From Candidatus Levyibacteriota bacterium (GTDB lineage: Bacteria; Patescibacteriota; Microgenomatia; Levybacterales; UBA12049), in contig CAVRKE010000001.1 in assembly GCA_963722305.1 (NCBI GenBank), positions 181,529-245,528 of the forward strand: a stretch of DNA of 64,000 nucleotides, read 5' to 3'. Below the pieces are notes generated by a model. The model was not told the origin of the DNA, did not search any database, and saw nothing but the letters and a program-made list of their open reading frames with translations. Of this stretch, positions 6,411 to 27,705 are shown piece by piece. Positions within the stretch are counted from its first letter, which is position 1. Each line of letters starts with the position of its first letter. The position numbers were made by a program, and so were the translations under genes.

Positions 6411-6441
6411 TTTTACATTGTAGCAGATATTAAATAATTAT

Positions 6442-7701: not shown

Positions 7702-7706
7702 AGTAC

Positions 7707-9686: not shown

Positions 9687-9691
9687 GCAGA

Positions 9692-10735: not shown

Positions 10736-11169
10736 TCTTCTCCTCTTTCGATTTTCCTTTGTTCGGGTGTTTCATCCGGACGTTTATAATCGTCTTCGAG
10801 CCGCAGTGTTGTTCCGGCTTCCGGACTGGAAACTTCCACAATATCGCAATCCGTAACCGCTTGATGGCGGTGCTTCTGCCCAACATGTGTCATATAGCCC
10901 AATCCTTTCTGCATCTGCACTGTTTCTATTTCACCATGCTTATTTTCGATAAGTAGATTACATTCACCGCTAAGTAACCAATAAGATTCTTGTTTTTGAT
11001 CATGAACTTGAAGCGAAAGTCTTTGTCCGGCATTGATATGTAAAATTTTGCCCATATATGACATCCCTTCAGGTACCCAATGTAATTCGTAACCCCAAGG
11101 TTTTTCAACTTTTTTAACGTAACCATCATTATTAAATTTTGACCTATCAATATTTTTTAAATCAATCAT
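10732..11169 (-). CDS. cupin-domain protein (mannose-6-phosphate isomerase type II C-terminal-like)
   Basis: Cupin motifs (KPWGYELHW...LHINAGQRLSLQVHDQKQESYWLL) are present. It overlaps the PGI/PMI stop by 4 nt (ATGA), consistent with an operon. The start is trimmed to an internal Met to remove overlap with pgm. Confidence 0.5.
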   Translation of the reverse strand: MIDLKNIDRSKFNNDGYVKKVEKPWGYELHWVPEGMSYMGKILHINAGQRLSLQVHDQKQESYWLLSGECNLLIENKHGEIETVQMQKGLGYMTHVGQKHRHQAVTDCDIVEVSSPEAGTTLRLEDDYKRPDETPEQRKIERGEE

Positions 11170-11173
11170 TTTA

Positions 11174-12568: not shown

Positions 12569-12581
12569 AATACATTTAATC

Positions 12582-13271: not shown

Positions 13272-13744
13272 AGTTTTTTCGTCAAACGTTTGTAATCGTT
13301 AAAAAGTACGTTGGCTGTTCTTCCCAAGTGCCTACTCCGTGTGACATGCGGAACCAAAGCTCCGGAAAAATTTTTGGGAATATGCAGTAGTTCGTGGATT
13401 AAGACTTTTATTTTTTCTTCATCATTTAATTTGTCATAGTGGCGGGATAAAACCTCGATTACATAGGCCGGTTCCAAACTCAGAGCGTCCTGAAAAATTT
13501 TAGGAAAAGACCAAATCCGGGCATATGACCTTGATTTTGAAGCTTGGGTACGGTAACAAAATATTCTTGCTGATTTTACATGTGGCATCTCCAAAACCCG
13601 AAGAATCTTATTAATATCTTTCTTGACATCCGGTGCCTTTTCCCAACCAAGTCCTGAGATTTGATTTTTAATTTTAGTTGTCTTTGGTCTTTGTTGCCTG
13701 TTTTTATAATTGTGAATTGTGAATTGTGAATTGTGAATTATCAT
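13268..13744 (-). CDS. hypothetical HExxH protein (putative metallopeptidase-like)
   Basis: HELLH motif in a 158-aa protein. The first 50 codons run through an (AATTGTG)n tandem repeat, so the real start is probably at MPHVKSARIF. Confidence 0.3.
   Translation of the reverse strand: MIIHNSQFTIHNYKNRQQRPKTTKIKNQISGLGWEKAPDVKKDINKILRVLEMPHVKSARIFCYRTQASKSRSYARIWSFPKIFQDALSLEPAYVIEVLSRHYDKLNDEEKIKVLIHELLHIPKNFSGALVPHVTRSRHLGRTANVLFNDYKRLTKKL
13708..13740. repeat. heptanucleotide tandem repeat (AATTGTG), about 4.5 copies
   Basis: Read directly: ataattgtgaattgtgaattgtgaattgtgaatta, between two minus-strand genes. Confidence 0.8.
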
Positions 13745-14271
13745 TAGGTGTGTTTATCCGCAACGTAAGAGGCAGCATAGGCATCAGGCTTGGTTTTAGC
13801 GACGAAGCCGTTTCCCGTCACCATACCGACCACTTCCTTAATCATCTCCCTGGTATCACCGTGCTCGCCGACATCAACATGGATTTCCAAATTATAATGA
13901 GGAGATTTACCGTTTAAATGTTTTTTAAACATCGGCACAAAACCGGTCGCGAAATTCAAGGAGGTCATCGTTTCAGCATAAATTTTTTCTCGCAGCGAAT
14001 GGATATTCCCAACGCTGACTCTTCGCCAAAAATATTTTCCGCCGAAACCTTTGCGGTGGATTAGAACCGCCGTCACCAAATTAATCTCCCTGGTGCCTTT
14101 TTTAATTTTGGTGCTGTCCGTCTTTTCGTGTGAATCCGTACCAATCACCAAACTATACTCGGCTTTGGAATCTTCTTCCAAAAATTCCTGAATCTTGACG
14201 ATTATTTCATCAACTTTCAGATTTCCGTGGGTTAGGCTATGGAATATTTCGTCCTCTAAGTCGCTATTCAT
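13744..14271 (-). CDS. DUF458/YkuK-like RNase-H-fold protein
   Basis: 175 aa with an IGTDS motif and overall YkuK-like pattern. Low certainty. Confidence 0.35.
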   Translation of the reverse strand: MNSDLEDEIFHSLTHGNLKVDEIIVKIQEFLEEDSKAEYSLVIGTDSHEKTDSTKIKKGTREINLVTAVLIHRKGFGGKYFWRRVSVGNIHSLREKIYAETMTSLNFATGFVPMFKKHLNGKSPHYNLEIHVDVGEHGDTREMIKEVVGMVTGNGFVAKTKPDAYAASYVADKHT

Positions 14272-14350
14272 AAACTGATACGCAGGTTTAGATTATACCA
14301 TAATTTGTCACGCTCTCAGCTTTTCGATCTCAAGCTTCAAATCTTGCTTC

Positions 14351-15523
14351 TCAAGCTTTGAGCAGCCACTTGAAAAAGCCGGTCGTTGATTTATTCAATT
14401 GCTCAAAAATTGTCTGAATCGCTTCATTGGCTTTAAATTTTTTGGTCGGAAGAGAGAGATTTTGATTTTGGATTGAAACGGCAAAGTCTTTAGCCAACAA
14501 CGGGGCTCCTTTAACTTTTGGAAAATTTTTATAACCGGTATAAAGCGGCGTCTGGTTGCCGTTTTGTAAAAAAGACAAATTGTTAAATGACCCCGTGCCG
14601 GCATTCAAAAGAAAAGGCGTAATCGCCACAATGTTTGCATCATTCCAGTAATTGTTGAGAGCCTGATTATAATAGCTGACCTGTAAATTATAGGGAACTT
14701 GGTCGGACGACCAGCCTGTTTCGGTAATAAACACCGGCAACTCCTTGCCCGTCAACTCGTAAACAAGATTATTCTGATAATAAAAACTGTCAATCCCTTC
14801 CCGAAAATCCGACGGGGGAGCGGAAAATCCCGGATTTGGATATGAGTGGCTGCCTAACCCGTCGATTTCGGAAAATATACCGGGCACCGCATCATTCATT
14901 TGTTGCATATAGGTAAATTCGTCGATTGCCAAGGCGTTTAGTTGGTTAATCGAAGCATTATCCAAGCCCGCCGAAATGATAAAAAAGTCAGGGTTCTCCT
15001 GCTTAAAACGGTGGACTGCGTAATCAAGAATTTGGGCATAAGAAGTAGCATCGGGTGTTCCGCCCCATTCGTCACCGCGGTTTGGTTCGTTGTAGACAAC
15101 AATGTAACGGTTTTGCGTTGGCCAGCTAAGCGAATCCAAAAAATTGGCAAAATCAACTATATCGTTGTCGGACGGCTCCGACCACGAAGCGGTGCTAAAA
15201 TAATCTCCGTCGGTTGCCAAGCGAATGATTGGAATAAGATGGTATCGTTTGCAATCGTCCATAAATTTTTGCCATTTATCAAGGTTTTTATCGGAAGCCT
15301 GAATCGGGATGGTCACATATCCCCAGTCGCCGCCTGAAGAATTAACCAAATCGGCCGCCTTACTTAACTCTTCCGGAAAGAGAATGTGGATGCCGAATTT
15401 GTTGTTGGCCACCGATAGCGGAGCGTAAGCGGCAAGTGCTTGTGCTGAAAGAACTTTTGGTGAAAACAACAGTAACGCCGTACTAATAATTACCGCGAAG
15501 CAAACAACTTTTACAATTTTCAT
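14351..15523 (-). CDS. secreted clan GH-A (GH5-like) glycoside hydrolase
   Basis: N-terminal signal peptide (MKIVKVVCFAVIISTALLLFSPKVLSAQA). Acid/base NEP (VVYNEPNRG) and nucleophile ITETGW are typical of (beta/alpha)8 clan GH-A enzymes. Confidence 0.5.
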   Translation of the reverse strand: MKIVKVVCFAVIISTALLLFSPKVLSAQALAAYAPLSVANNKFGIHILFPEELSKAADLVNSSGGDWGYVTIPIQASDKNLDKWQKFMDDCKRYHLIPIIRLATDGDYFSTASWSEPSDNDIVDFANFLDSLSWPTQNRYIVVYNEPNRGDEWGGTPDATSYAQILDYAVHRFKQENPDFFIISAGLDNASINQLNALAIDEFTYMQQMNDAVPGIFSEIDGLGSHSYPNPGFSAPPSDFREGIDSFYYQNNLVYELTGKELPVFITETGWSSDQVPYNLQVSYYNQALNNYWNDANIVAITPFLLNAGTGSFNNLSFLQNGNQTPLYTGYKNFPKVKGAPLLAKDFAVSIQNQNLSLPTKKFKANEAIQTIFEQLNKSTTGFFKWLLKA

Positions 15524-15552
15524 ATCTTTCTATTTTACACCAAACAGCAAAG

Positions 15553-16425
15553 CTAAATCGAGGAAAACCTGGCGAAGATACCGGTGGAGAGTAGTCTTGA
15601 ATTGGATTTTTCCTGTAAAGCCAATTCTCCGTATTCGATTTGTTCGCTATTGAAGTCCAAATAATCTTCCAGCACATTTTTGAGCATTAAGGCTGAAGCG
15701 GAAATTGCATAAGCATTGACAATCACAAACACCGGACGCGGGTTGAGGATTTTTCGGCAGTTTTCTAACAGCTGAGGAAAACTTTGGTTAAAATCCCAAA
15801 TTTCGCCGTTTGGCCCATGGCCGTAAACCGGCGGGTCCATAATAATGGCATCATAAACGTTGCCCCGCCTTGATTCACGGGCAGTGAATTCAACCGCATC
15901 ATCCAAAATCCAGCGAATTTGTTTGTCAGACAGTCCTGAAAGTTCTTGATTTTCTCTGGCCCAGGCAATTGCCGGTTTTGATCCATCCAAATGGGTAACT
16001 TTTGCCCCGTTTGCCGCACAGACAAGACTAGCAATACCTGTATAACCGAACAAATTGAGTACATTGATTTGTTTTTCGCCATCTTTTTTTTGTTTTTTGT
16101 TTATTGTCTTTTGAATAAATTCCCAATTTAACATCTGTTCGGGAAAAACTCCGGTATGTTTAAAAGGAGTCAGTTTGGCATAGAATTTAAGGTTTTGATA
16201 ACTTAACTGCCATTTATCCGGCATATTCGACTTTTTCTTCCAGGCTTCGTTCTCAAAAATTCCATCCGCCATTTGCCATTTGCTATCAACCAATGATGGT
16301 TTCCAGATGGCCTGCGGGTCGGGCCGTGAGATAACATATTTTCCGAATCTTTCCAAGCGCCGTCCGCTACCACTGTCCAGCAGTTCGTAATCTTCAAAAC
16401 CTGATGTTGATAAAATTATCATCAT
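15553..16425 (-). CDS. class I SAM-dependent methyltransferase (RlmI/RlmL-like RNA methyltransferase)
   Basis: GYTG SAM-binding motif (LNLFGYTGIASL) and IIMDPPVYG. Confidence 0.55.
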   Translation of the reverse strand: MMIILSTSGFEDYELLDSGSGRRLERFGKYVISRPDPQAIWKPSLVDSKWQMADGIFENEAWKKKSNMPDKWQLSYQNLKFYAKLTPFKHTGVFPEQMLNWEFIQKTINKKQKKDGEKQINVLNLFGYTGIASLVCAANGAKVTHLDGSKPAIAWARENQELSGLSDKQIRWILDDAVEFTARESRRGNVYDAIIMDPPVYGHGPNGEIWDFNQSFPQLLENCRKILNPRPVFVIVNAYAISASALMLKNVLEDYLDFNSEQIEYGELALQEKSNSRLLSTGIFARFSSI

Positions 16426-16433
16426 TGTCTTTT

Positions 16434-16470
16434 TGAATCATAAATCATAAATCATAAATCTTCAATCATT
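16434..16470. repeat. heptanucleotide tandem repeat (AAATCAT), 3 copies with degenerate flanks, in the divergent promoter region between the methyltransferase gene and obg
   Basis: Read directly: gaatcataaatcataaatcataaatcttcaatcatt. Confidence 0.75.
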
Positions 16471-16490
16471 AGATTTGATAGAATATAAAC

Positions 16491-17456
16491 ATGTTAATCG
16501 ACGAAGCCACAATTACGGTCAAGGCCGGCAACGGCGGAAAAGGTGCGGTCAGCTTTAAAAGGAATGCCCAAACCGCCAAAGGCGGTCCTGACGGAGGGAA
16601 CGCGGGTAATGGCGGAAATGTTTATGTCGTGGGAATTAATGATTTTACCACGCTGACTGAGTTTCGTTATAAAAAAAACGTCAGGGCGGAAGACGGAGTA
16701 AATGGCGGCAGACAAAACCTGTATGGCAGAAACGGCAAAGATTTGACGATACAAATTCCTGTTGGTACCCAAGTCACCAATCTGGATACTCATGAAAGTT
16801 TTGAGGTTACGGATACTGTTTCCAAGATTTTAATCGCCAGTGGCGGTAAAGGCGGAAGAGGCAACAACGAATTTAAATCTGCTACCAATCAAACGCCTTT
16901 TTACGCCGAAAAAGGCGAACCGGGGGAGCAAAAAAGATTTTTTCTTGAGTTGAAACTAATTGCCGACGTTGGCTTAATTGGCCTGCCAAACTCGGGAAAG
17001 AGTTCGCTGTTGAGTGTTTTGACCAACGCCCACCCTAAAATCGGTGATTATCCGTTTACTACTCTTGAACCCAATTTAGGAGTGCTCTCGGGATTGGTAA
17101 TTGCCGATATTCCGGGACTGATAGAGGGCGCATCACAGGGCAGGGGATTGGGAGACAAATTTTTAAAGCACGTTGAGAAAACCCGGATTCTCATCCACTG
17201 CCTTGACTGCCTATCAGATGATTTAAAAAAGGATTACCAAACTATCCGTAATGAATTAGGAGTTTACAACCCGGATTTACTGAATAAGCAAGAACTATTG
17301 GTTTTGACAAAATCCGATTTGGTTGATGAAAAAATTCTCAAAAAAAACATAAAGATTGCGGAAAAATTCAATCAAAATTATTTGACAGTTTCTATTTATG
17401 ACGACCAAAGTCTGGAAACACTCAAAACTAAAATCCTCGCACTGGCTGAAAAATAA
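16491..17456 (+). CDS. obg: GTPase Obg (short form without the C-terminal domain)
   Basis: 321 aa with a glycine-rich N-terminal Obg fold and G1-G4 motifs (GLPNSGKSS, DIPGLIEGA). Confidence 0.9.
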   Translation: MLIDEATITVKAGNGGKGAVSFKRNAQTAKGGPDGGNAGNGGNVYVVGINDFTTLTEFRYKKNVRAEDGVNGGRQNLYGRNGKDLTIQIPVGTQVTNLDTHESFEVTDTVSKILIASGGKGGRGNNEFKSATNQTPFYAEKGEPGEQKRFFLELKLIADVGLIGLPNSGKSSLLSVLTNAHPKIGDYPFTTLEPNLGVLSGLVIADIPGLIEGASQGRGLGDKFLKHVEKTRILIHCLDCLSDDLKKDYQTIRNELGVYNPDLLNKQELLVLTKSDLVDEKILKKNIKIAEKFNQNYLTVSIYDDQSLETLKTKILALAEK

Positions 17457-17460
17457 ACGC

Positions 17461-17486
17461 AAAAAAACCCCTTACGGGGTCTTTTC
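17461..17486 (+). terminator. rho-independent terminator after obg
   Basis: Hairpin CCCC-TTAC-GGGG followed by TCTTTT, immediately after the obg stop. Confidence 0.7.
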
Positions 17487-17649
17487 GGGGTGACTTTCTT
17501 ACGAAGGTCTCCTGCCTTTTTAATACTTGCGTATCTGAAGGTAAAAATTAGTATATACTCCTATACGGTCTATGTCAACTGGGACAATGTGGTACAAACT
17601 AGACCAATATTGGCATATATGTAGTTTGAGCACGTAACGAATGACTCAC

Positions 17650-17988
17650 TTACTCTCTTTCGGAAGAACGCATCATTTCTCCAAAGTCTAAGTCCATATG
17701 ATAGTCCGGATGTAATCTTTGTAGGATTTTCCCCGTTTCTATTCTTGCCAACATGCTATCAGGATCTCCTAAGACCGCGATAGCCTTATACTGTCTGTCA
17801 GCAACGAACCGTCCGTGATCAATAGTACTTGAAGCATGTATTCTCCCATATGTTTCCAGTGGGGGAATTAAGTCATGCTTTGTAGCAAGAGTCACATCGG
17901 TCACCTCATAATCGTCGTTCCTACCAATCGCTACCAGATCTCCGATTCTTACAAATGGAACATCATTGATAACATTTATTTGTCCCAC
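17650..17988 (-). CDS. hypothetical protein (orphan, GC-richer than its surroundings)
   Basis: 112-aa ORF with no recognised motif. It lies between the obg terminator and the IS30 left end, and its composition differs from flanking DNA. Confidence 0.25.
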   Translation of the reverse strand: MGQINVINDVPFVRIGDLVAIGRNDDYEVTDVTLATKHDLIPPLETYGRIHASSTIDHGRFVADRQYKAIAVLGDPDSMLARIETGKILQRLHPDYHMDLDFGEMMRSSERE

Positions 17989-18010
17989 ATAAATTGGGTA
18001 GGTTCTAAAA

Positions 18011-19087
18011 CGAAGTGCAACACTTGAGGTAAAATCAATTACCGAAAGGAGGTGTTGCGCTATGTATAATCATTTAACTCTTGTAGAGCGGGAAGAGCTT
18101 TATGCGCTTAAGCATGCAGGACTAAGTCTGGGAGATATTGCAGATAAATTAGGACGAAACAAAGGCACTCTGTCTCGTGAACTCAAAAGAAACAGAACAT
18201 ATACCAAGGGATTGGAGAAAACTTCAGCCGTATATATTCCCTGCCGTGCACAACAAAAAGCTGATAAGAGAGCAGCTATTCAACGCTCTCAAGCATCCTG
18301 GAAAGGACCGGAGGTCTACTCTTATGTTAAAAAGAAACTAATAGAGAAACAGTGGTCTCCTGAAACAATTGCCGGAAGATTGTCAAAAGATCATCCCGAT
18401 CTTTCAATTGTCCATGAAACTATTTATCAGGCAATCTACAAACCACAGAACAAGCAATTTAAGCTCTGGCAATATCTAACAGTAAAACGCAAGAAAAGAA
18501 TGAAAAAGCTGGGAAGAAGGGTTAATAGAGATAGCCGTATTCCTGAAGCTATTTCGATTGATAGTAGACCCAAATCGATTGACACAAGATTACAACTTGG
18601 CCATTGGGAGACAGATAATGTGATAGGCCGCCAAACTGACAAGACTGCCCTGTCAGTAACGGTTGAAAGAAAACTAAGGCTTACTGTTATGTCAAAGCTA
18701 GCTGCTAAAACAGCAGATGAAAAAACTAAGAAACTGTTTGCTAGAATGAGTCGTTTTCCTGACAAAATCAGAAAAACTCTGACTGCTGACAATGGAGCTG
18801 AAAATACCAAACATAAACAAATTACGGAGAGCTTAGACATGTCTGTATATTTCTGTCATGCATATCACTCCTGGGAAAAAGGAACGGTTGAAAATATGAA
18901 TGGAAGAATCAGGCGTTTTATTCCTAAAGGCATAAGCATGGATCTAATTACCGAAAGAGACGTTGCTTTAATTGAATGGGAACTGAATAATACGCCCAGA
19001 AAATGTTTGGATTGGAAAACACCACTTGAAGTTTTAGGAGAAATCATGCAGAATACAAAAACCTCAAATCGTTGCACTTCGAGCTAG
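18011..19087 (+). mobile_element. IS30-family insertion sequence (about 1.07 kb) with imperfect terminal inverted repeats
   Basis: IRL cgaagtgcaacacttgaggt (18011-18030) matches IRR acctcaaatcgttgcacttcg (19052-19072) in 18 of 20 positions with one indel. A single DDE transposase ORF lies between them. Confidence 0.8.
18062..19087 (+). CDS. IS30-family DDE transposase
   Basis: 341 aa with an N-terminal HTH (LSLGDIADKLGRNKGTLSRELKRN) and an IS30-type catalytic region (HWETD...ADNGAENT...YFCHAYHSWEKG). Confidence 0.85.
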   Translation: MYNHLTLVEREELYALKHAGLSLGDIADKLGRNKGTLSRELKRNRTYTKGLEKTSAVYIPCRAQQKADKRAAIQRSQASWKGPEVYSYVKKKLIEKQWSPETIAGRLSKDHPDLSIVHETIYQAIYKPQNKQFKLWQYLTVKRKKRMKKLGRRVNRDSRIPEAISIDSRPKSIDTRLQLGHWETDNVIGRQTDKTALSVTVERKLRLTVMSKLAAKTADEKTKKLFARMSRFPDKIRKTLTADNGAENTKHKQITESLDMSVYFCHAYHSWEKGTVENMNGRIRRFIPKGISMDLITERDVALIEWELNNTPRKCLDWKTPLEVLGEIMQNTKTSNRCTSS

Positions 19088-19223
19088 AATGTACCTTGAC
19101 ATATGTTGAAGCAAAGTATAATCTTATAGTGAATTAAAGTCAACCCATTACTTGCTTAAACTACATAAGAGCCACAATATTGCATCTTTCAAATTGATTG
19201 CAAATAATGCTATTATATTTTTT

Positions 19224-19760
19224 ATGACAGAAGATGTTTGTCCGAAGTGCGGATCACCACTGGCGCCGGTTACCGAAACATCCAGTGGACGAAAATTACA
19301 GCGTTGTTCAACCGGCAGTTGGGATCCTAAAACCAGAACTAATGAAGGCTGCGACTACGTTAAATGGCTTCCGTTTGAACCGCAGGAGTTGGACGAAAAA
19401 TGCCCCAAATGCGGCGCTCCTTTGGTAATGCAGATGACCCGTTTTGGCAAAAAAATGAAAAAGTGCAGCGCTGGCACCTGGAATAAGGAAACCAAAAAAG
19501 CCGAAGGCTGCGACTACGTCGAATGGATTAACGGCACTACCCAAGCCACCGACGAGCTATGCCCACAATGTAAAAGTCCGCTGGTTTTATTTACCACTAA
19601 TGCCGGAAAGCGGATGAAAAAGTGTTCAACTGCCGGCTGGGACAGGGAAAAAAGAGTCGCCACCGGTTGTACGTACATAGAATGGCTTAAACCGGAAGCA
19701 AAAGCCAAAGAAGACAGTGGCGGCGAAGAATTTTTACCCCCTGAACCACAAGGTGAATAA
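19224..19760 (+). CDS. stand-alone protein made of three tandem topoisomerase-type C4 zinc-ribbon repeats
   Basis: Three repeats of about 45 aa with the pattern CP(K/Q)C-x-PL-x8-12-K(K/R)MKKCS-x-W-x9-GC-Y(V/I)EW, resembling the Zn-ribbon repeats at the C-terminus of topoisomerase I. The start is moved to MTEDVCPKCG. Confidence 0.5.
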   Translation: MTEDVCPKCGSPLAPVTETSSGRKLQRCSTGSWDPKTRTNEGCDYVKWLPFEPQELDEKCPKCGAPLVMQMTRFGKKMKKCSAGTWNKETKKAEGCDYVEWINGTTQATDELCPQCKSPLVLFTTNAGKRMKKCSTAGWDREKRVATGCTYIEWLKPEAKAKEDSGGEEFLPPEPQGE

Positions 19761-19825
19761 AACCCTGATATTGATTTGTAAGTTAGCTCACCGATTATTA
19801 GTATTGGCTATTCGATAATTAATCT

Positions 19826-21565
19826 ATGTTTTTACTATTGGCGTTTGCTTTTTTATCCGGTTTTGTCACTATCTTAACCCCCTGCATTTGGCCGCTCCTG
19901 CCGATTGTCTTATCCTCAAGCGTTACCGGAACCAGCCATCAGCGACCGCTGGGGGTGACCCTCGGTATTATGCTGAGCTTTGGCATTTTTACCTTAGTTA
20001 TTTCTTCATTGGTCAAACTACTAAATTTCGACCCGAATATTTTGCGCTTAATCTCGGTGGTTGTCATCGCAGTTTTAGGCATTAGCTTAATTATTCCGGC
20101 CGCCGGTGCCAAATTGGAATTGCTTATCAGCCGCTTATCCGCCATGTTTGGCGTTAAAACTCAACAGCAGGGAAACGGTTTTTGGCCGGGATTTATCACC
20201 GGTGTGGCTTTGGGAATTGTCTGGTCTCCATGTGCCGGACCGATATTGGCTGCCATCGCCGCGCTGGCCGCTACCGGAAAAATTACTTTTGACGCCGTTT
20301 TGGTAATTATTTTTTATGTTTTCGGTATTGGCTTACCGTTGTTTGTTTTTGCCTACGGCGGCCAGCAATTATTTGTCAGAACCAGATTTATCTCCCGTTA
20401 TACCGGCCGTATTCAACAAGTTTTCGGCGTAATTATGCTGTTAACTGCCTTGGCAATTTATACCAACTATGATGTGGCTTTTGAAACAAAACTCCTTGAT
20501 GCTTTCCCGGGGCTAAATACGACCTTAAACAACTTTGAAAATAACTCAACTGTTACTAATCAGCTGAATGTTTTAAAAGGCACAAGCCAATCAACGCCGC
20601 AAGCGACAAATAACAATACAGACCTATTTAACAGTAACTTACCTGCTCCGGATTTTTCGGGAGGCACAAATTGGCTTAATTCAAAACCGCTCACTATCGC
20701 CGAATTAAAAGGGAAAGTAGTGCTGGTTGATTTTTGGACTTACACCTGTATTAATTGTATCCGCACTTTGCCGCACATTACAGCTTGGTACGAAAAATAT
20801 AAAAATTTAGGGTTTGTGGTCATCGGAGTGCATACTCCGGAATTTCAGTTTGAACACGACACCGGCAACGTCCAAAATGCCATAAAAATGTTTGGCATTA
20901 ACTATCCGGTTGTTCAGGACAACAATTACGCTATTTGGAACGCTTACAATAACCAGTACTGGCCGGCCGAATATTTAATTGATTCAAACGGCAACATTCG
21001 CCGGGAAAATTTTGGCGAAGGAGATTACGACCAGACCGAAACTGCAATCCAAACGCTATTACAACAAGCGGGGAAAACCGTTCCGAAATCGATACTGAAA
21101 ATTCCTGACCAGACGCCGCAGGAACAAATCTCGCCGGAAACATATCTAAATTCCCAGCGTATGCAATATTATTATCCCGGTGGCAACACCGGTAACACCA
21201 GTGCCAATTTTACCTTATCCAATAATTTGCCGGTTAATGCTTTTAGTTTCGGTGGGAAATGGACAATCGATGCTAATAGCGCTACTGCCGGGAATAATGC
21301 AAGTTTAAATTATAATTTTTATGCTAACAAAGTGTTTTTAGTCTTAAATCGGGGTTCAACAAACCAGGCTAAAATAAAAATATTTTTGGATGGCCATTTG
21401 GTCGATAAAACCTTTGCAGGAGGAGATGTCGTCAATGGGGAAGTTGTAATTGATTCGGATCGTCTTTATAATTTAATCGATTTAAAAGGCAATCCCGGCA
21501 ACCATATTTTAGAGATTCAATTTGAAACTCAGGGAATAAAAGCTTTTGCCTTTACTTTTGGCTAG
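19826..21565 (+). CDS. fused CcdA/DsbD-type membrane domain and TlpA/ResA-like thioredoxin domain, with a C-terminal extension of unknown function
   Basis: 579 aa. N-terminal polytopic region with paired Cys (LTPCIWP, WSPCAGP). Redoxin domain with CxxC (FWTYTCINCIRTLP). About 150 aa of unassigned C-terminus. Confidence 0.7.
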   Translation: MFLLLAFAFLSGFVTILTPCIWPLLPIVLSSSVTGTSHQRPLGVTLGIMLSFGIFTLVISSLVKLLNFDPNILRLISVVVIAVLGISLIIPAAGAKLELLISRLSAMFGVKTQQQGNGFWPGFITGVALGIVWSPCAGPILAAIAALAATGKITFDAVLVIIFYVFGIGLPLFVFAYGGQQLFVRTRFISRYTGRIQQVFGVIMLLTALAIYTNYDVAFETKLLDAFPGLNTTLNNFENNSTVTNQLNVLKGTSQSTPQATNNNTDLFNSNLPAPDFSGGTNWLNSKPLTIAELKGKVVLVDFWTYTCINCIRTLPHITAWYEKYKNLGFVVIGVHTPEFQFEHDTGNVQNAIKMFGINYPVVQDNNYAIWNAYNNQYWPAEYLIDSNGNIRRENFGEGDYDQTETAIQTLLQQAGKTVPKSILKIPDQTPQEQISPETYLNSQRMQYYYPGGNTGNTSANFTLSNNLPVNAFSFGGKWTIDANSATAGNNASLNYNFYANKVFLVLNRGSTNQAKIKIFLDGHLVDKTFAGGDVVNGEVVIDSDRLYNLIDLKGNPGNHILEIQFETQGIKAFAFTFG

Positions 21566-21646
21566 TACCGCAAACGTTTCCGCCTAGCCTTGGAACAGCT
21601 CTCCAGCTTAAATGCCATTGGAGAATAAAAAAACAATCAGTTCGAA

Positions 21647-21850
21647 TTACTTTTGTGCAATTTCATCAATAATCAAATAAAGATCATTGATTTTATCCGC
21701 TAACATTTTCTCTATAACTGCCCTTTTTGTATCGAGATCGGGATAACGTATACTTTCGTAGTCATCAAAAGAAATCTTAAAATTATTAAAATAACTATTG
21801 GCTGATTGTTTGGCTTTTGCTGATTTCGGTTTGAAATTTTTTATCTTCAA
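21647..21850 (-). CDS. hypothetical small protein
   Basis: 67-aa ORF with no motif, at the island boundary. Confidence 0.2.
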   Translation of the reverse strand: MKIKNFKPKSAKAKQSANSYFNNFKISFDDYESIRYPDLDTKRAVIEKMLADKINDLYLIIDEIAQK

Positions 21851-22004
21851 GTGTATACACCTCTTTTCGCAGATAAATTTAGTTAAATTTAATCTTGCCG
21901 ATTATTAGTGGGAAAGTATAGCAGAAATGTGCAAATTTGTCAACTATAGGTCTTTGCACTCGAGGTTTCAGATAATGATCCTTAGGTTAAACCAGTTTTT
22001 CAGC

Positions 22005-22256
22005 TTAATTGCTAGTAGGGAGTGGAGTTTCTTCCGTTAAGTCAGAGATTGCAATCTCCATCCTTGCCATTATTTCATCTGGTTCGTTAGGGTCACAAAA
22101 TCCATTATATTGAATTTCAACGGATGCTATACCATTATATCCATGAGTATGTCTTGTTGCTGGTCTTTTAAAAGTATCATAAAAGATATCACCATCAGGT
22201 TCTATGAAAGCATGGGATGGACCTATTTTGTAGGGACGTTTTTCGTATTCTGGCAT
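22005..22256 (-). CDS. hypothetical small protein (weak resemblance to the UPF0150/HicB-like antitoxin fold)
   Basis: 83 aa. FIEPDGDIFY...DPNEPDEIMARMEIAISDLTEE loosely resembles the HicB N-domain pattern. It is flanked by two copies of the motif TTGTCAACTATRGG. Confidence 0.25.
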   Translation of the reverse strand: MPEYEKRPYKIGPSHAFIEPDGDIFYDTFKRPATRHTHGYNGIASVEIQYNGFCDPNEPDEIMARMEIAISDLTEETPLPTSN

Positions 22257-22334
22257 AAGTGGATTATAATTACGAGTGTAAGAATTGTCAACTATGGGAC
22301 TTAGTACCGCGTGCGCACTTTATCAAGTACGTCG

Positions 22335-22380
22335 CTCCGATGAGCTCCGGGAGTCGAACCCACGATCTTCTCAGGATTCT
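22335..22380 (-). pseudogene. degenerate tRNA fragment (T-arm region identical over 18 nt to tRNA-Glu at 27582-27655)
   Basis: The minus strand reads ATCGTGGGTTCGACTCCC, identical to the tRNA-Glu T-arm. The T-stem 3' strand is mutated (CCCGG instead of CCCAC) and there is no intact acceptor or 5' half. Confidence 0.4.
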
Positions 22381-22434
22381 CCTACCATTCCGATAAGAAA
22401 CTTTTTCAAAGCAAAAAGCCAATGGGATTTTTCA

Positions 22435-22545
22435 GTGAGCTATATGGTTCCAGCCTGGAACCCCTGTTTAAAAGTCTCACAAAAATATACTTTAAATTAC
22501 TTGAACTAGGCTTAGTATATCATGAAAAGGAGGTAAAATGAACCC
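22435..22545 (+). repeat. 111-bp repeat, copy 1: promoter/RBS/start-codon cassette with the internal palindrome GGTTCCAG-N-CTGGAACC; an inverted copy lies at 45691-45802
   Basis: About 95% identical to the reverse complement of 45691-45802. Contains TTTAAA-16nt-TAGTAT, GGAGG and ATGAACCC, the start of the PLD-like gene. Confidence 0.85.
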
Positions 22546-22987
22546 TTTCCCCTCATCAAGGTTATATGACGAAAAGACGTTTTACCAAGCCTTCTTAAGA
22601 GACCTAGAGGGTTGTAGGAGTGAGGTAATCATCGAAAGCCCGTATATTACCAGTAAAAGAGCTGAAATGTTAATTCCTATATTCGACGACCTTTTAACTA
22701 AAGGTGTCAAAATCTATGTCATTACCAGGGATCCTCAAGAACATGAGGAAAATATGGAATATCAGTCCGAAGAGGCTATATCGTTATTTGAACATATGGG
22801 AATACAAGTCTTACTTTGTATTGGCAATCATCACCGAAAACTGGCCATATTAGACAGAAAAATACTTTGGGAAGGAAGTTTAAATATTCTTTCGCAGAAT
22901 CACAGTCGGGAAATAATGAGAAGGATTGAGAGCAAACAGTTGGCAATAGAGATGTTTGAGTTTTTGAGACTTTATAGATTTATATAG
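22538..22987 (+). CDS. phospholipase D (HKD) superfamily nuclease-like protein
   Basis: 149 aa with a single HxK(x)4D motif (NHHRKLAILD) plus the downstream GSxN (EGSLNI), typical of small Nuc-type PLD nucleases that act as dimers. Confidence 0.65.
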   Translation: MNPFPSSRLYDEKTFYQAFLRDLEGCRSEVIIESPYITSKRAEMLIPIFDDLLTKGVKIYVITRDPQEHEENMEYQSEEAISLFEHMGIQVLLCIGNHHRKLAILDRKILWEGSLNILSQNHSREIMRRIESKQLAIEMFEFLRLYRFI

Positions 22988-23003
22988 GAACTCAAGATGT
23001 ACG

Positions 23004-23477
23004 CTACCTGAGAGGTAGTTCATGTGGTAGTTTCAGTTCCTTAGCAATTACGCTAGCTTGTTTTTTTGTTTCCTCAATCCGTTGTTTGTTATCTGACGCA
23101 ATTGCTTTCCAGTAAGCAATTTTTATGTCAACATATCTTTGTCGAAGCTCTTCATAGTGTACCTTTTCAACGAGGTGTATTTTTTGCTTTTCAAGTAATT
23201 TTATTTGTTCATCTGCAGCATCTGGACCTATGCTGCGATTCTTGAGGTATGTTCGCATATCTTCAATTGATAATCCTGTCGCATTAAGGCAGGCGACAGA
23301 AATTACAAGGTTAACATCGTCTTCCGTGTATGTTCTGTGTTTGCTGCTTTCGTCACGATGGATTGGGTGAATTAATCCTATTGTTTCGTAATAACGAAGA
23401 GTGCTTTCAGGAAGCCCACTTAACTTGGCAGCTTCTCTAATTGTATATGTTTGTGAATTATTTCTTTGCATGTTCAC
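23004..23477 (-). CDS. MerR-family transcriptional regulator
   Basis: N-terminal MerR HTH (YTIREAAKLSGLPESTLRYYETIGLI) and a C-terminal coiled-coil dimerisation helix. Confidence 0.8.
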   Translation of the reverse strand: MNMQRNNSQTYTIREAAKLSGLPESTLRYYETIGLIHPIHRDESSKHRTYTEDDVNLVISVACLNATGLSIEDMRTYLKNRSIGPDAADEQIKLLEKQKIHLVEKVHYEELRQRYVDIKIAYWKAIASDNKQRIEETKKQASVIAKELKLPHELPLR

Positions 23478-23480
23478 TTA

Positions 23481-24137
23481 TTATACATCCGCTTTAAGTT
23501 TCTCAAATGCTTCGCTCCAATTATCAATTTGATTATCTCCGCTATACAGTTCGAAAGTTTTTCCTAGTGATTGTGGGTTTTCTAATGCGGCCACAATGAC
23601 TTTACCAAGTGTAACCCCGGATATATCATTTCTTCTGCCGGTATACTGATCACCCTGTTCTAAAGATATACCTTCCCCATTTTCTTCATCTCCAATAACC
23701 CATGCAGGACGGATAATAGTGTATAAGAATCCTGATTGCCGTATTAGTTCTTCTGCTTTAAGTTTTGCCTTGTTATAATCTGGCATTCTTTCAATTTCTG
23801 TAATTCCAATATGACCCATAAAAATAATATGAGCATTTCGCGGTGCTACCTTTAGGACATTTTTTACACCTTCAACGTAAACTTCATTAAGCTGTTCTGG
23901 ATCCCGGCTTGATTCGACGCTAATTACGATTCCCATTGCGTTTTGAAGTGCTGGTTTTAAAGATTCAATATTAGTAATACTTCCTATAACATACGAAATA
24001 TTACCTTCATCCGGTTGAGTATGTCTTGCCAATACTGTAACAAGTGCTCCTTTTTTAGCTGCCTGCCTAACTGAATTATGTCCAAGCCATCCGGTACCTC
24101 CTATGACGACGATTTTTTCGCCTTTAATAGATTTCAT
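23481..24137 (-). CDS. NAD(P)H-binding oxidoreductase (NmrA/atypical SDR-like)
   Basis: Rossmann motif IVVIGGTGWLGHN at the N-terminus. 218 aa. Confidence 0.6.
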   Translation of the reverse strand: MKSIKGEKIVVIGGTGWLGHNSVRQAAKKGALVTVLARHTQPDEGNISYVIGSITNIESLKPALQNAMGIVISVESSRDPEQLNEVYVEGVKNVLKVAPRNAHIIFMGHIGITEIERMPDYNKAKLKAEELIRQSGFLYTIIRPAWVIGDEENGEGISLEQGDQYTGRRNDISGVTLGKVIVAALENPQSLGKTFELYSGDNQIDNWSEAFEKLKADV

Positions 24138-24155
24138 ATTTATAAATGATTTGAG

Positions 24156-25001
24156 TTATTTTTTAGGATTAAGTTCTCCAAACCAATATGAAGCTGTAAC
24201 ACCGCCATCAATTAAAAAGTCGCTTCCTGTAATAAATCCTCCCTCAGGCCCCATGATAAAAGCTGCAAGACTAGCTACTTCTTCCGGAGTGCCACTTCGT
24301 TTTGCGGATGATAATTCAATCATTCTTCGGTATCCTTCTCCCCTTGGCCCTTTTAGTTCATCATTAGCAAGTGGCGTCATAATGATTCCCGGGCTAATAG
24401 TATTTACTCTGGCTCCACGCTTTCCCCAGAGGACCGCTTCTGCCATTACTCTAAGCGAGTTTCCTCGTTTTGAGATTTGATAAGCATGAAGTGAGTCAGT
24501 AATTTTATCTAACTGAAGAAAGGGAAGCGAAAGTAATTCTTCAATTGGGGTTGTTGCCAAGGCCTTATCCTCTTCTGGTGTTAGTGCGGGAAGACGATGT
24601 CCTGACATTGAAGAGATAACAACACCACTACCACCATTTGCTATAATTTTTCCAAATTCTTCAAGAACAACAGCGGTTCCATACAAATCAACATGTAATA
24701 TTGCTTCGGGTGATGCTTGAGACGGAGAAACTCCAGCAGCATGGATAACATGAGTAATTTCACCAATTTTTTTTGCGGTTTCAACAAGTTGGCGTACTGA
24801 GTCACGGGAAGAGACATCTACTGTTGCTGTGCTTACTTCAAATCCTGTATCACTAAATTCCTTTGCTGCCTTTTCAACACTTTCCTGACGTCTGCTAGCC
24901 AGTAATACATGTTTACCCGCACCAACTCTTCTTGCAATTGCTTGCCCAATTACTCCTGCTCCAACAACAACTACTACATTTTTTAAATCTGGATTTTTCA
25001 T
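24156..25001 (-). CDS. short-chain dehydrogenase/reductase (SDR) family oxidoreductase
   Basis: Glycine-rich cofactor site (VVVVGAGVIGQAIA) and a YxxxK catalytic motif (YQISKRG). Confidence 0.75.
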   Translation of the reverse strand: MKNPDLKNVVVVVGAGVIGQAIARRVGAGKHVLLASRRQESVEKAAKEFSDTGFEVSTATVDVSSRDSVRQLVETAKKIGEITHVIHAAGVSPSQASPEAILHVDLYGTAVVLEEFGKIIANGGSGVVISSMSGHRLPALTPEEDKALATTPIEELLSLPFLQLDKITDSLHAYQISKRGNSLRVMAEAVLWGKRGARVNTISPGIIMTPLANDELKGPRGEGYRRMIELSSAKRSGTPEEVASLAAFIMGPEGGFITGSDFLIDGGVTASYWFGELNPKK

Positions 25002-25005
25002 ACAC

Positions 25006-26037
25006 CTAATTTTTAATTTGTACTTTTATAGCTTTACGTTTGTCCATTGCCTCATATCCTTTTGCCAAATCAGAAAGCGGCAGCGTCAAATCAAATATTG
25101 GAGATGGGTCAAGTTTGCCTGAAAGAACATCTTTCAATAATTCTGGCGTATACGATGCGGTTGGTGCAATGCCGCCTCCGATTGTAACGTTTCTCCAAAA
25201 TATATCATTTACTTTTATATCAGGTACATCTTCAGGGATTCCTACGCATCCGATTCTTCCACCGGGTCTTACCATGCCCATTGCCATACTTCGAGCATCT
25301 TTTCCTCCCACACATTCCAAAACACAATCAGCACCAACCTCTGTTAGCTCTTTGACTTTGTCTATGCCTTCTTGTCCACGTAATGCGACAATATCTGTTG
25401 CGCCGAAGAGTTTTCCTACCTTTTGACGATCTTTGTGTCTACTCATCAAAATTATCTTTTTGGCGCCAAGTCTTTTACTCGCAAGTACTCCACAAAGACC
25501 AACCGCTCCATCTCCAACAACTGCAACAGTTTTTCCTTTTGAAACTCCTGCTGAAACAGCTGCATGATGACCGGTTCCCATCACATCAGATAACGCGAGA
25601 ATTGCCGGTATTAGTTTTTTATTTGTTTTTTTGGGAAAAGTGAAGAGATTAGCATCTGCAAAGGGAACCCTTAGTTTTTCTGCTTGGCAACCGGTTGTGC
25701 CTTTATTACCCCAATTACTTCCGTTGATACATTGACTGCTCATCCCTTTTTGACACAAAATGCATTTTCCGTCACACCATGAGAATGGACCAACAGCTAA
25801 ATCTCCAACCTTAACATTTTTAACGTCTTTTCCAACTTCAATAACCTCTCCCATGAACTCATGACCGATTCTCGTACCTGCTTCTCTTTTGAGAATGCCA
25901 CGATACCACCATAGATCAGACCCGCAAATGCAGGTATTAGTTATCTTAATAACCGCATCAGTTGAATTTTCAATTTTTGGGTCCGGTACCTCTTCTACTC
26001 GAATGTCATGGGGTCCGTAAAATATCCCTGCTTTCAT
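25006..26037 (-). CDS. zinc-dependent alcohol dehydrogenase (MDR superfamily)
   Basis: GHEFMGEVIEVG zinc-binding signature, a structural-Zn Cys cluster (CDGKCILCQKG...C) and the GxGxxG motif (VVGDGAVGL). Confidence 0.8.
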   Translation of the reverse strand: MKAGIFYGPHDIRVEEVPDPKIENSTDAVIKITNTCICGSDLWWYRGILKREAGTRIGHEFMGEVIEVGKDVKNVKVGDLAVGPFSWCDGKCILCQKGMSSQCINGSNWGNKGTTGCQAEKLRVPFADANLFTFPKKTNKKLIPAILALSDVMGTGHHAAVSAGVSKGKTVAVVGDGAVGLCGVLASKRLGAKKIILMSRHKDRQKVGKLFGATDIVALRGQEGIDKVKELTEVGADCVLECVGGKDARSMAMGMVRPGGRIGCVGIPEDVPDIKVNDIFWRNVTIGGGIAPTASYTPELLKDVLSGKLDPSPIFDLTLPLSDLAKGYEAMDKRKAIKVQIKN

Positions 26038-26423
26038 GATCGGTATACCTCCTCAGATACTGGTTCTAGCCAGGTAACATCTCCATAAGTAATTGCTAAG
26101 TGACACATTTTATTTTGCTCGTCGGGATGTGCTCCATGCCAGTGTTCTGTGTTAGCGGGAATATATACGACATCACCCGGATCAGCATTGACTATTTCTT
26201 GCCCCTTTAATTGAACTCGTCCTAGCCCCTCAAGAAAATAGAGTACTTGCTCTCCACTATGTTTATGCCATACCGTACGTGCGCCCTTTTCAAAAGTTAC
26301 CCGTCCTACCATTGATGATCCGGAATCTGCTTTAGTAACGTATTGAATATGAGTTGTACCGGTAAAATTTTCCAGCGCTCCTTGTTGTTCTGGAATATCT
26401 GTAGCGTGAATATGTTTTGTCAT
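26034..26423 (-). CDS. cupin-domain protein
   Basis: 129 aa with two cupin motifs (HKHSGEQVLYFLEG ... GDVVYIPANTEHWHGA). It overlaps the ADH gene by 4 nt, suggesting an operon. Confidence 0.65.
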   Translation of the reverse strand: MTKHIHATDIPEQQGALENFTGTTHIQYVTKADSGSSMVGRVTFEKGARTVWHKHSGEQVLYFLEGLGRVQLKGQEIVNADPGDVVYIPANTEHWHGAHPDEQNKMCHLAITYGDVTWLEPVSEEVYRS

Positions 26424-26496
26424 AAGGTTATACTAACAACTTAAAGTACTTTAAGTCAAGTACTCAATACACTCTAACTTTTTTATAATGTCTCAT

Positions 26497-26540
26497 TATT
26501 GGGTTCGAATCCCAAACGGCGTGAGGCTAGAAATATAGGA
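26497..26540 (+). repeat. tRNA-3'-end-like fragment (TTGGG-TTCGAAT-CCCAA-ACGGCGTG plus 18 nt); an inverted near-identical copy lies at 43171-43211
   Basis: About 39 of 41 nt identical to the reverse complement of 43171-43211. It contains a perfect T-arm but has no tRNA 5' half upstream. Confidence 0.8.
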
Positions 26541-26617
26541 TGCGATAGGATTTTAAGGCAATATCTGGAACTTGTTTTAGCTTCAATTCTGAGGATAATA
26601 CCAAGATGCGTAAAAAG

Positions 26618-26689
26618 TGAGCCGGGTGGGATTCGAACCCACGACCAAGAGCTTAAAAGGCTCCTGCTCTACCGCTGAGCTACCGGCCC
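26618..26689 (-). tRNA. tRNA-Lys (anticodon TTT)
   Basis: Hand-folded cloverleaf: acceptor GGGCCGG/CCGGCTC with one G-U pair, D-arm GCTC-AGCGGTA-GAGC, anticodon loop CTTTTAA, T-arm GTGGG-TTCGAAT-CCCAC, discriminator A. Confidence 0.8.
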
Positions 26690-27581: not shown

Positions 27582-27655
27582 GGCGCCATCGTCTAGTGGT
27601 CTAGGACACAGGGTTTTCATCCCTGGAATCGTGGGTTCGACTCCCACTGGCGTCA
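27582..27655 (+). tRNA. tRNA-Glu (anticodon TTC)
   Basis: Hand-folded: acceptor GGCGCCA/TGGCGTC with one G-U pair, anticodon stem CAGGG/CCCTG with loop TTTTCAT, T-arm GTGGG-TTCGACT-CCCAC, discriminator A. Confidence 0.8.
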
Positions 27656-27705
27656 CATAATCCTATAGTTGAACTTCTCCCAATTTTCTGCTAGACTCTC
27701 CAATT

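Follow-up and report, generated by a model that had tools for sequence, protein, structure and literature searches.

Little is known about how the streamlined genomes of Patescibacteria gain accessory functions, and one locus in a Candidatus Levyibacteriota bacterium raises this question in a compact form: a group of oxidoreductase genes lies directly beside a tRNA gene, and it has to be asked whether these genes form an acquired island, where such an island begins and ends, and by what route it could have arrived. The stretch analysed here (hereafter the window) is 64,000 nucleotides (nt) long (contig CAVRKE010000001.1 of assembly GCA_963722305.1, positions 181,529 to 245,528), and all coordinates are counted from its first base. 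An original prediction had placed a horizontally acquired, MerR-controlled island at 21600-26560 and had taken two tRNA-derived fragments as its edges. This prediction is partly supported, in that the island is real; however, it was mis-delimited and partly mis-described, and both a second copy and the conserved ends of the unit were missed. We instead read positions 22435-26622 as an integrative cassette without a recombinase, docked at the 3′ end of tRNA-Lys(TTT), belonging to a modular family of tRNA-end cassettes and carrying a cargo operon controlled by an NmlR/AdhR-like regulator; we put the probability of this reading at roughly 0.6.

Two inverted cassettes with shared ends

tRNA genes were sought with ARAGORN and Rfam, both of which identify tRNA-Lys(TTT) (26617-26689, minus strand) and tRNA-Glu (27582-27656, plus strand). 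The tRNA-Lys(TTT) gene is intact (74 bits to the Rfam tRNA model), and directly at its 3′ end lies a unit of 4.2 kb (22435-26622, unit A). A repeat search revealed an inverted partner 17-23 kb away (45801-43127, unit B), which abuts tRNA-Lys(CTT) (43059-43132, plus strand). Both units are bracketed by the hexamer GTGAGC, the right-hand copy of which is in each case the antisense of the tRNA-Lys 3′ terminus: in unit A it comprises the last six bases of the tRNA gene (26617-26622, GTGAGC on the plus strand), and in unit B the tRNA 3′ end GCTCAC (43127-43132, read from 43132 to 43127). Both the cassette and a 113-nt repeat open with the left core of unit A (22435-22440, plus strand); that of unit B lies at 45801-45796. 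When the units are compared with one another, the left arms are 94% identical (22434-22546 on the plus strand against 45802-45690), the right arms 90-95% and the 3′ part of the PLD gene 75%; the cargo is different.

The left arm encodes the remnant of a small 'tail' open reading frame (ORF; ..LEPLFKSLTKIYFKLLELGLVYHEKEVK*), with the same frameshift in both window copies, and the TGA of this ORF (22539-22541) overlaps the ATG of the following gene, as ATGA. The latter (22538-22987, plus strand) encodes a single-HKD protein of 149 amino acids (aa) belonging to the PLDc_2 family (E = 2e-11), hereafter PLD. At the opposite end, the right arm (26493-26616, plus strand) is conserved and non-coding, measures about 130 nt as a whole, and consists of a T-arm and acceptor relic resembling tRNA-Arg together with GAGGCTAGAAATATAGGAT, followed by ~75 nt that end in AAAAA immediately ahead of the core. 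Its tRNA-like repeat (26493-26541, against 43224-43176 in unit B) is 90% identical over 49 nt, or 95% over 42 nt, and holds the perfect T-arm TTGGGttcgaatCCCAA. Orphan perfect T-arms are scarce, with 2 found in 1.14 Mb of related loci. The T-arm and acceptor portion is closest to the 3′ ends of tRNA-Arg genes; a displaced copy of the tRNA-Lys gene is ruled out by the orientation of the relic, which points to that gene. Marker sequences of the two arms are GTGAGCTATATGGTTCCAGCCTGGAACC (left) and GGCGTGAGGCTAGAAATATAGGAT (right). From the unit ends, the joined-end junction is deduced to read ..GCGTAAAAAGTGAGCTATATGGTTCC.. and the empty site of unit A ..GGGATTTTTCAGTGAGCCGGGTGGGATTCG.. At the distal boundary of unit A, six identical nt (GTGAGC) give way to weak tRNA-like similarity, which is clearer in the related locus L006 (GTGAGCCGTAGCGGGGTCAGGTGGAAC against the tRNA sequence GTGAGCCGCCTGAGAGTCGAAC).

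These limits differ from those first proposed. Positions 21600-22434 lie outside unit A, and the 41-nt repeat that had been taken as the right edge, which is the tRNA-like repeat of the right arm, lies inside it; the description of this repeat as tRNA-3′-like, with its perfect T-arm, holds, whereas its role as an edge does not. The same is true of the left fragment, which had been called tRNA-Glu-like. It does share 18 of 18 nt with the T-arm of tRNA-Glu, and ARAGORN places a degenerate pseudo-tRNA here (22339-22416, minus strand), only when relaxed to an 80% threshold and then labelled tRNA-Phe; it nevertheless belongs to the left flank, outside the cassette. Rfam made no call at this relic, and found nothing above chance at either the left fragment or the right arm. 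The 5′ end of the relic is 18 nt from the left core, where relatives have an intact minus-strand tRNA. The relic derives either from a neighbouring tRNA that has decayed or from an older unit, of which it would be the tRNA-like left end.

The composition of unit A is atypical, although not in the way that had been claimed. The island had been said to be higher in GC than its surroundings; its GC content is in fact 0.389, compared with 0.400 for the window, which ranks it at the 27th percentile among windows of its size. In contrast, its tetranucleotide distance (strand-symmetrised, segment against the rest of the window, ranked among same-size windows) tops that of every other window, and the distance obtained with the coordinates first proposed is reached by 0.7% of windows. 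Moreover, GC content at third codon positions is low, at 0.22-0.30 in the five operon genes described below against 0.39-0.48 in four core neighbours (u220, c77, glmS and c45).

Reading outwards from tRNA-Lys(CTT), unit B contains a right arm recognised as a repeat match (43133-43224, minus strand; a type-2 variant), a 317-aa ORF with no family match (43275-44228, plus strand), a 141-nt remnant of the PLD 3′ end (44248-44388, minus strand; 75% identical to 22848-22988), a gene for a 402-aa Fic-domain protein (44456-45664, plus strand), which takes the place of the central part of PLD, and the left arm (45690-45802, minus strand), on whose side ATGAACCC is the only residue of PLD. The Fic protein (Pfam E = 1.2e-14; PADLOC SoFic 90.7 bits, E = 3e-26) contains HPFNNGNKR, an instance of the motif HPFxxGNxR, and is a candidate defence protein of the SoFic type. 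A Fic cassette with 87% nucleotide identity over 1.3 kb was found in L094, also next to tRNA-Lys(CTT) and with another break point inside PLD. Fic genes were also observed directly upstream of PLD in L039, L061 and L065.

Domain searches found no recombinase domain in any ORF of unit A or unit B. The right arm was also considered as a structured RNA; RNAalifold returned -9.9 kcal/mol with essentially no covariation and invariant stems only. A by-eye likeness of the arm to ..SGTxxLAP.. coding had suggested the decayed 3′ end of a serine recombinase gene, which was rejected because an nhmmer profile of eight arms matched no recombinase 3′ end. The simplest reading of the right arm is that it is a recombination arm.

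Related units at several tRNA genes

The relatives examined comprised 80 loci encoding PLD homologs in GTDB species representatives (L002-L081), from Levy-, Davies-, Roizman-, Gottesman-, Woese- and Collierbacteria among others, and counts concerning PLD were made over 77 loci. In addition, a metagenome scan with the right-arm query GAGGCTAGAANTATAGGAT returned 16 contigs, 11 of them bearing the arm. The right arm precedes tRNA-Arg(TCT) in L005 and L011, tRNA-Lys(CTT) in L094 and tRNA-Arg(TCG) in L086 and L095. The arm of L083/L088 differs from that of the window at 2 of 81 nt and is joined to a variant left arm. In L091 and L096 the right arm is joined via GTGAGC straight to a left arm of the PLD type, and in L091 a PLD 91% identical to that of the window lies downstream of the joined ends. 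The smallest units measure ~1.5 kb and consist of PLD, one ORF and the arm (L084, L093).

An occupied and an empty site can be compared directly in L005 and L007, which are syntenic at a tRNA-His/Arg/Gly/Pro cluster. In L007, tRNA-His and tRNA-Arg(TCT) are 18 nt apart (the empty site), and in L005 a 3.0-kb unit made up of left arm, PLD, three ORFs and right arm lies exactly between the two. Insertion between tRNAs explains why a minus-strand tRNA is found within 450 nt upstream of PLD in 8 of 77 loci, against ~1.8 expected from the tRNA density of the same loci, and why the tRNAs near PLD are mostly antisense to it (59/70).

Some relatives carry a large serine recombinase (domains Resolvase, Recombinase and Zn_ribbon_recom). 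In L006, L046 and L017 this ORF stops within the 3′ end of tRNA-Lys(CTT), and in L018 within tRNA-Val; the recombinase/tRNA junction reads GTGAGC in L006 and L046 and GTGATC in L017. A partial recombinase ORF of L052 continues past GTGAGC into the tail peptide ..RWKQIFDSLIQTYHKLTKLGFTYYNGK.., and a strict pattern finds this peptide encoded right upstream of PLD in 22 of the 77 loci, with more diverged versions in others.

Clustering of ORFs revealed a common gene order in which PLD, a small ORF and an XRE-type helix-turn-helix (HTH) gene are followed by variable genes and an M23 peptidase, and then by a VirB4/TraG-like ATPase, an ORF of ~205 aa without family match, a PrgI-family protein, a TrbL-like protein and a VirB2-type pilin. 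PLD lies beside a cluster resembling a Gram-positive-type type IV secretion system (T4SS) in most of L002-L081, with a variable insertion zone between PLD/HTH and the peptidase. L006 and L046 have a truncated T4SS-like cluster between PLD and the serine recombinase at tRNA-Lys(CTT). As a whole, PLD, T4SS-like cluster and recombinase may form an element akin to integrative and conjugative elements. The window contains none of the T4SS, HTH (c4) or recombinase genes of this family.

The cargo operon and its operator

The cargo of unit A is an operon of five genes, all on the minus strand. It begins with a Cupin_2 protein (26034-26423), whose best NCBIfam model, a mandelonitrile-lyase family, is matched under its cutoff. 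This is followed by a Zn-dependent medium-chain alcohol dehydrogenase (ADH; 25006-26037, domain match), a classical short-chain dehydrogenase/reductase (SDR; 24156-25001) of NCBIfam subfamily PRK06940 (445 bits against a cutoff of 280), an NAD_binding_10/NmrA-like NAD(P)H-binding protein, which is an atypical SDR (23481-24137, domain match), and lastly an NmlR/AdhR-like MerR regulator (23004-23477) with a single cysteine, Cys63, and an HTH matching MerR_1 (E = 1.9e-15) and MerR (E = 2.5e-12). With PLD, these are the six kinds of gene that the original prediction had named, and domain searches agree on all of them. The regulator, which had been described as divergent, is on the strand of the oxidoreductases, separated by 3 nt from the NmrA-like gene that precedes it, and converges with PLD. 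A promoter or operator had been expected at 22990-23004, but the 16-nt gap at this place (22988-23003) separates two convergent stop codons and so cannot hold a promoter.

The expectation of a MerR palindrome upstream of 26423, on the other hand, was borne out. A promoter-like site (26430-26459, minus strand) consisting of TTGACT, an 18-nt spacer and TG-n-TAGTAT ends 6 nt ahead of the cupin ATG and, as there is no Shine-Dalgarno sequence, the mRNA would have little or no leader. The -35 element TTGACT is overlapped at its ACT by the perfect 18-bp palindrome ACTTAAAGTACTTTAAGT (26439-26456), which occurs once in the window and is unlikely to have arisen by chance. An identical TTGACTTAAAGTACTTTAAGT stands in L004 ahead of an aldo-keto reductase gene, which is followed by a 78% identical regulator fragment, and in L105-L107 ahead of an operon encoding a MerR regulator (63%), ADH, cupin, SDR and flavodoxin. 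In the latter metagenome contigs (2955-8019), the operon comes directly after tRNA-Met/Met/Asp, and behind it lie a 441-aa large serine recombinase, different from the type of the cassette family, and a restriction-modification-like pair. Here, too, an island next to tRNA genes carries a related cassette, without PLD.

The best NCBIfam model for the regulator is NmlR. In the NmlR subfamily Cys54 is conserved throughout and needed for activation, and a -35 element embedded in an inverted-repeat operator is special to NmlR-type regulons (PMC5001606). The NmlR profile aligns residues 13-125 of the window protein to positions 3-114, an offset of 10 that brings Cys63 (..VACLNATGLS..) to position 53-54; judged from position only, it would be the equivalent of HiNmlR Cys54. 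The palindrome and the homologous regulators fit an NmlR/AdhR-type carbonyl-stress switch. The idea of a MerR-controlled module against carbonyls or electrophiles is supported by the best model, the place of the cysteine, the palindrome over the -35 element and the recurrence of the operator box in L004 and L105-L107. We propose that the single-cysteine regulator binds the 18-bp palindrome over the -35 element of the 18-nt-spacer promoter, that carbonyl or electrophile stress would switch on the operon, the regulator's own gene included, and that the enzymes would then reduce or convert reactive aldehydes or ketones. The enzymes are generic carbonyl/alcohol oxidoreductases, and the cargo is an ordinary NmlR-type detoxification module.

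Set beside the known regulons of Haemophilus influenzae NmlR (with adhC-estD) and Bacillus subtilis AdhR (with adhA-yraA), the window operon shares a short MerR regulator with the subfamily cysteine, an inverted-repeat operator that embeds the -35 element, and ADH-type carbonyl detoxification genes as predicted targets. It differs in that the regulator is far under the equivalog cutoff and stands last in the operon rather than divergent, in that the spacer is 18 nt and the first gene leaderless or almost so, and in that the enzymes are a cupin, a medium-chain dehydrogenase/reductase-type ADH, an SDR and an NmrA-like protein instead of a class III ADH with an esterase.

The original prediction had asked whether the best relatives of the ADH, SDR and MerR proteins lie outside the host lineage; for the SDR, the closest named ones do. 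The best matches of the SDR are 74-79% identical, and the named ones (74-77%) come from Geomonas, a Geobacteraceae metagenome-assembled genome (MAG) and a Bacteroidota MAG. The Bacteroidota contig has the same four gene types in the same order (cupin..ADH-SDR-NmrA); however, of its proteins the SDR matches that of the window (76%), the cupin does so weakly (39%), and no others match. Relatives of the ADH-cupin pair, at 75-81%, occur in other contigs and in unrelated contexts; the single named one is from Patescibacteria, and actinomycete proteins come next (53-58%). With relatives of SDR, ADH and cupin scattered over such contexts, the operon is a mosaic from a widely shared pool, and at least one of its genes has its closest named relatives in other phyla.

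The PLD protein

The HKD motif of the window PLD is complete (H99-x-K101-x4-D106-x6-G113-S114-x-N116, reading H99 R K101 LAIL D106 RKILWE G113 S114 L N116), and H99, K101, D106, G113, S114 and N116 are invariant in 40-sequence alignments. There are 4732 homologs; the top matches are 72-89% identical, those with a name are from Patescibacteria, and several small genomes have two copies. No NCBIfam name applies to the protein. It matches the nuclease domains of the defence proteins MkoC and DrmC. PLD relatives were absent from IMG/VR viral contigs, and a match to PHROGs was marginal only. An AlphaFold (AF2) model with a predicted local distance difference test score of 74 gave as top Foldseek matches Zucchini (4ggk, E = 2.9e-7), NucT (6ehi, E = 1.5e-6) and Nuc (1byr, E = 1.2e-5), with template modelling (TM) scores of 0.52-0.60. 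On the basis of this model, PLD is a putative nuclease like Nuc, NucT and Zucchini.

The nuc gene is carried by the conjugative plasmid pKM101, and NucT acts in T4SS-dependent DNA uptake. Nuc (pKM101), NucT (Helicobacter pylori) and Zucchini/PLD6 resemble the window protein in having ~150 aa and one HKD motif, besides being its best structural matches. The likeness to Nuc extends to location, as its gene lies near T4SS-type genes and PLD adjoins a T4SS-like cluster in the relatives; this usual neighbourhood suggests an accessory role like that of Nuc/NucT in DNA transfer or uptake. In contrast, sequence identity to the three proteins is just 11-24%, with TM-scores of 0.5-0.6; Nuc and NucT are exported, whereas the window PLD has no N-terminal signal evident by eye; and the window gene is placed at the end of a tRNA-end cassette. 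In view of this constant place, PLD may also take part in maintaining the cassette.

Comparison with the closest syntenic genome

The closest syntenic genome is that of another member of the Levyibacteriota, L008, with which window positions 7538-17559 are collinear. The L008 PLD lies ~340 nt after the c77 gene and ~160 nt past the end of collinearity, and the L008 unit has a methyltransferase and an unknown ORF as cargo and ends at tRNA-Glu. The tRNA-Glu/tRNA-Lys(TTT) pair is flipped in the window relative to L008, where tRNA-Glu (minus strand), tRNA-Lys(TTT) (plus strand) and c78 (minus strand) are all adjacent (13080-14173). The window c78 (46063-46917) is found beside the outer end of unit B, whereas in L008 it touches tRNA-Lys(TTT). 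An exchange between two inverted units would explain both the flipped tRNA pair and the position of c78, and probably such an exchange has rearranged the chromosome; repeated units of this kind possibly explain local rearrangements. A single inversion between units A and B was rejected as the full history, as it leaves the orientation of the c45 block unaccounted for.

Proposed mechanism and alternatives

A unit of this family has four parts: the core GTGAGC(C), antisense of a tRNA 3′ end; a short tRNA-like left arm encoding the tail ORF, coupled to the highly conserved single-HKD PLD; variable cargo; and a right end that is either a large serine recombinase gene running into the tRNA or, as in the window, the ~130-nt non-coding arm. 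We propose that a joined-end form recombines with the 3′ end of a tRNA in a site-specific manner at the core, and that units are inserted in this way. Copies without a recombinase may be moved or exchanged in trans, or via recombination between the conserved ends; alternatively, they may be decaying relics. The family is apparently an undescribed variation on tRNA-associated integrative islands that is widespread in Microgenomates (Patescibacteria). No description of it was found in the literature on Patescibacteria, mobile elements, serine recombinases and PLD, the coverage of which was incomplete, making this weak evidence of novelty.

The locus points to a modular system whose ends are defined and whose cargo can be exchanged (a carbonyl-stress operon in one unit, a Fic gene in the other), and which is sited at the 3′ ends of tRNA genes in many lineages of Microgenomates. 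From it come att-like sequences to look for in reads, a candidate family of recombinases and a candidate integration site for genetic tools in hosts that are hard to cultivate. Even if the cargo is ordinary, it shows an NmlR-type switch with a recognisable operator circulating among these bacteria.

Several observations weigh against reading unit A as such a cassette. Past the first six nt, the left arm has only weak similarity to the 3′ end of tRNA-Lys. A tblastn search of the 64-kb window with the serine recombinases of the family gave only tRNA-antisense and tail matches, and with no recombinase in the units either, present-day mobility is conjectural; an IS30 transposase does lie 3.3 kb to the left of unit A. 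Continuity of frame between recombinase and tail is seen in L052 and consistent in L006, but is not present in L046. The contigs of L091 and L096 are short, and their joined ends may be junctions of tandem units rather than circles; in L083/L088, L092 and L093 the arm runs into a variant left arm without PLD behind it. As to the cargo, the regulator scores 62.2 bits against an NmlR equivalog cutoff of 175, the promoter spacer is 18 nt against the 19-20 typical of MerR promoters, and the closest named relative of the ADH is a Patescibacteria protein (77%, among unnamed matches at 75-81%). Finally, PLD follows the same upstream block in L008 as in the window, and part of this block in L003, and the PLD scaffold may therefore be old and vertically inherited in the clade.

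This last point also speaks for a rival explanation, in which PLD and the tRNA are ancestral neighbours that enclose a recombination hot spot, where cargo has been swapped by homologous recombination via PLD, the right arm and the tRNA, with no site-specific integration at all. The L008 PLD also faces the same tRNA-Glu/tRNA-Lys pair, the two PLD proteins are 74% identical, in line with neighbouring core genes (62-88%), and the units contain no recombinase. Because the position of the PLD scaffold is conserved and the cargo is not, a fixed scaffold with exchanged cargo stays alive as an explanation. We nonetheless regard it as unlikely, given near-identical right arms at five different tRNA species, which are also found joined to left arms, the precise insertion between two tRNAs in L005 relative to L007, the two copies in several small genomes, and the serine recombinase ORFs that end at the same core. 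The original prediction had held that uniform composition and orthologues in the same position in related genomes would indicate an ancestral locus. Composition is not uniform, and at the place of PLD in L008 the cargo is entirely different; both, together with the closest named SDR relatives in other phyla, speak for an island with accessory cargo.

A further alternative makes PLD the engine. In this case the HKD protein and the tail ORF would provide mobility or maintenance, acting as a core nuclease/transesterase or as an addiction or defence nuclease, and the serine recombinases would be part of other elements sharing these tRNAs as sites. PLD is indeed the sole conserved protein gene in small units of 1.5-4 kb (L084, L092, L093 and window unit A), it always lies ~100 nt from the core, and its HKD motif is invariant among numerous and, at the top, closely similar homologs (4732; 72-89%). 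HKD enzymes such as BfiI and Tdp1 use a covalent phospho-histidine intermediate, a chemistry that would suit such a role. However, PLD is missing from some units whose left arm is of the same kind, the ends of unit B are well kept while its PLD is destroyed, and the T4SS-like cluster beside PLD in most relatives suggests a Nuc/NucT-like accessory role, making PLD an improbable driver. A related and similarly doubtful proposal is that the cassettes are unrecognised, very small mobile units specific to Patescibacteria, which colonise the spacers behind tRNA genes and have in PLD and the mini-ORF their own DNA-processing or retention enzyme, one that would cleave or transesterify at the core or secure the unit against loss; if true, this would be the first mobility or maintenance protein of the PLD family.

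A classical tRNA island with attachment (att) repeats at 22335-22380 and 26500-26541, as first proposed, is hardly tenable: both fragments are truly tRNA-derived and the island is compositionally atypical, but they lie on opposite strands with no detectable mutual similarity, resemble different tRNAs (Glu, or Phe by relaxed ARAGORN, on the left and Arg on the right), and the sequence common to the second copy and other genomes spans 22434 to 26622, which leaves the left fragment outside and the right fragment inside the unit.

Relation to known integrative elements

Among known systems, the preferred reading of unit A as a recombinase-less cassette brings it nearest to integrase-less derivatives of tRNA islands. 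Such cis-mobilisable elements (CIMEs) are flanked by att sites and have no recombinase. Unit A has both att-type ends, which are joined in L091 and L096, and no recombination genes, and units bearing a serine recombinase are present at tRNA-Lys(CTT) in L006, L046 and L017. tRNA-gene-associated islands (PMC4383910) and CIMEs share with the cassettes insertion at the 3′ end of a tRNA that stays intact and accessory cargo that varies among relatives; a short repeat, weakly tRNA-like in the window, marks the far end, and the window copy has att-like ends without a recombinase. Unlike them, the relatives' recombinases are of the large serine type, whereas tyrosine integrases are usual; the identical repeat spans no more than 6-7 nt; one end encodes the tail ORF and PLD and the other is a 130-nt arm with an inverted tRNA-Arg-like relic; and the units are very small, occur in tandem and between adjacent tRNA genes, and reside in a Patescibacteria genome of ~0.6 Mb.

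A second likeness concerns elements in which attP lies inside the integrase gene, as in myxophage Mx8, so that integration alters the integrase C-terminus. In a comparable manner, the recombinase ORF of the relatives ends inside the tRNA when integrated, and that of L052 continues into the tail ORF. However, these are serine and not tyrosine recombinases, the link is drawn from the partial ORF of L052 and the frame of L006, and there is no such gene in the window.

Left flank and other features of the window

The 4.9 kb to the left of unit A (17560-22434) are not present in syntenic L008, and their tetranucleotide signature is not atypical. They contain an IS30-family transposase (18062-19087), a 202-aa protein with three Zn-ribbon repeats (19152-19760) and a CcdA/DsbD-thioredoxin fusion (19826-21565), and further hold two small ORFs without family match and the tRNA relic. 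A homolog of the CcdA-thioredoxin protein is found in L013, within the variable region downstream of PLD. A perfect sigma-70 consensus (22263-22291, minus strand; TTGACA, 17 nt, TATAAT; 12/12) is located directly ahead of an 83-aa ORF (22005-22256, minus strand), after which comes a 67-aa ORF (21647-21850, minus strand). Neither has a family match, and together they could be a small two-gene module, e.g. a toxin-antitoxin pair.

Next to this region, a non-coding stretch of ~105 nt after the c77 gene (17454-17559) is 82% identical to positions 9719-9827 of L008. It starts with a GC-rich hairpin and a T-run and has no significant Rfam match. Elsewhere in the window, at least 6 head-to-tail copies of the 21-nt unit CTCTAGATGAAAAAGTGGGGG are found at 61719-61886, presumably a coding repeat of 7 aa. 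Lastly, a perfect orphan T-arm, GCGAGttcgattCTCGT, stands at the very start of the window (8-24) and is probably part of a tRNA gene cut by the window edge.

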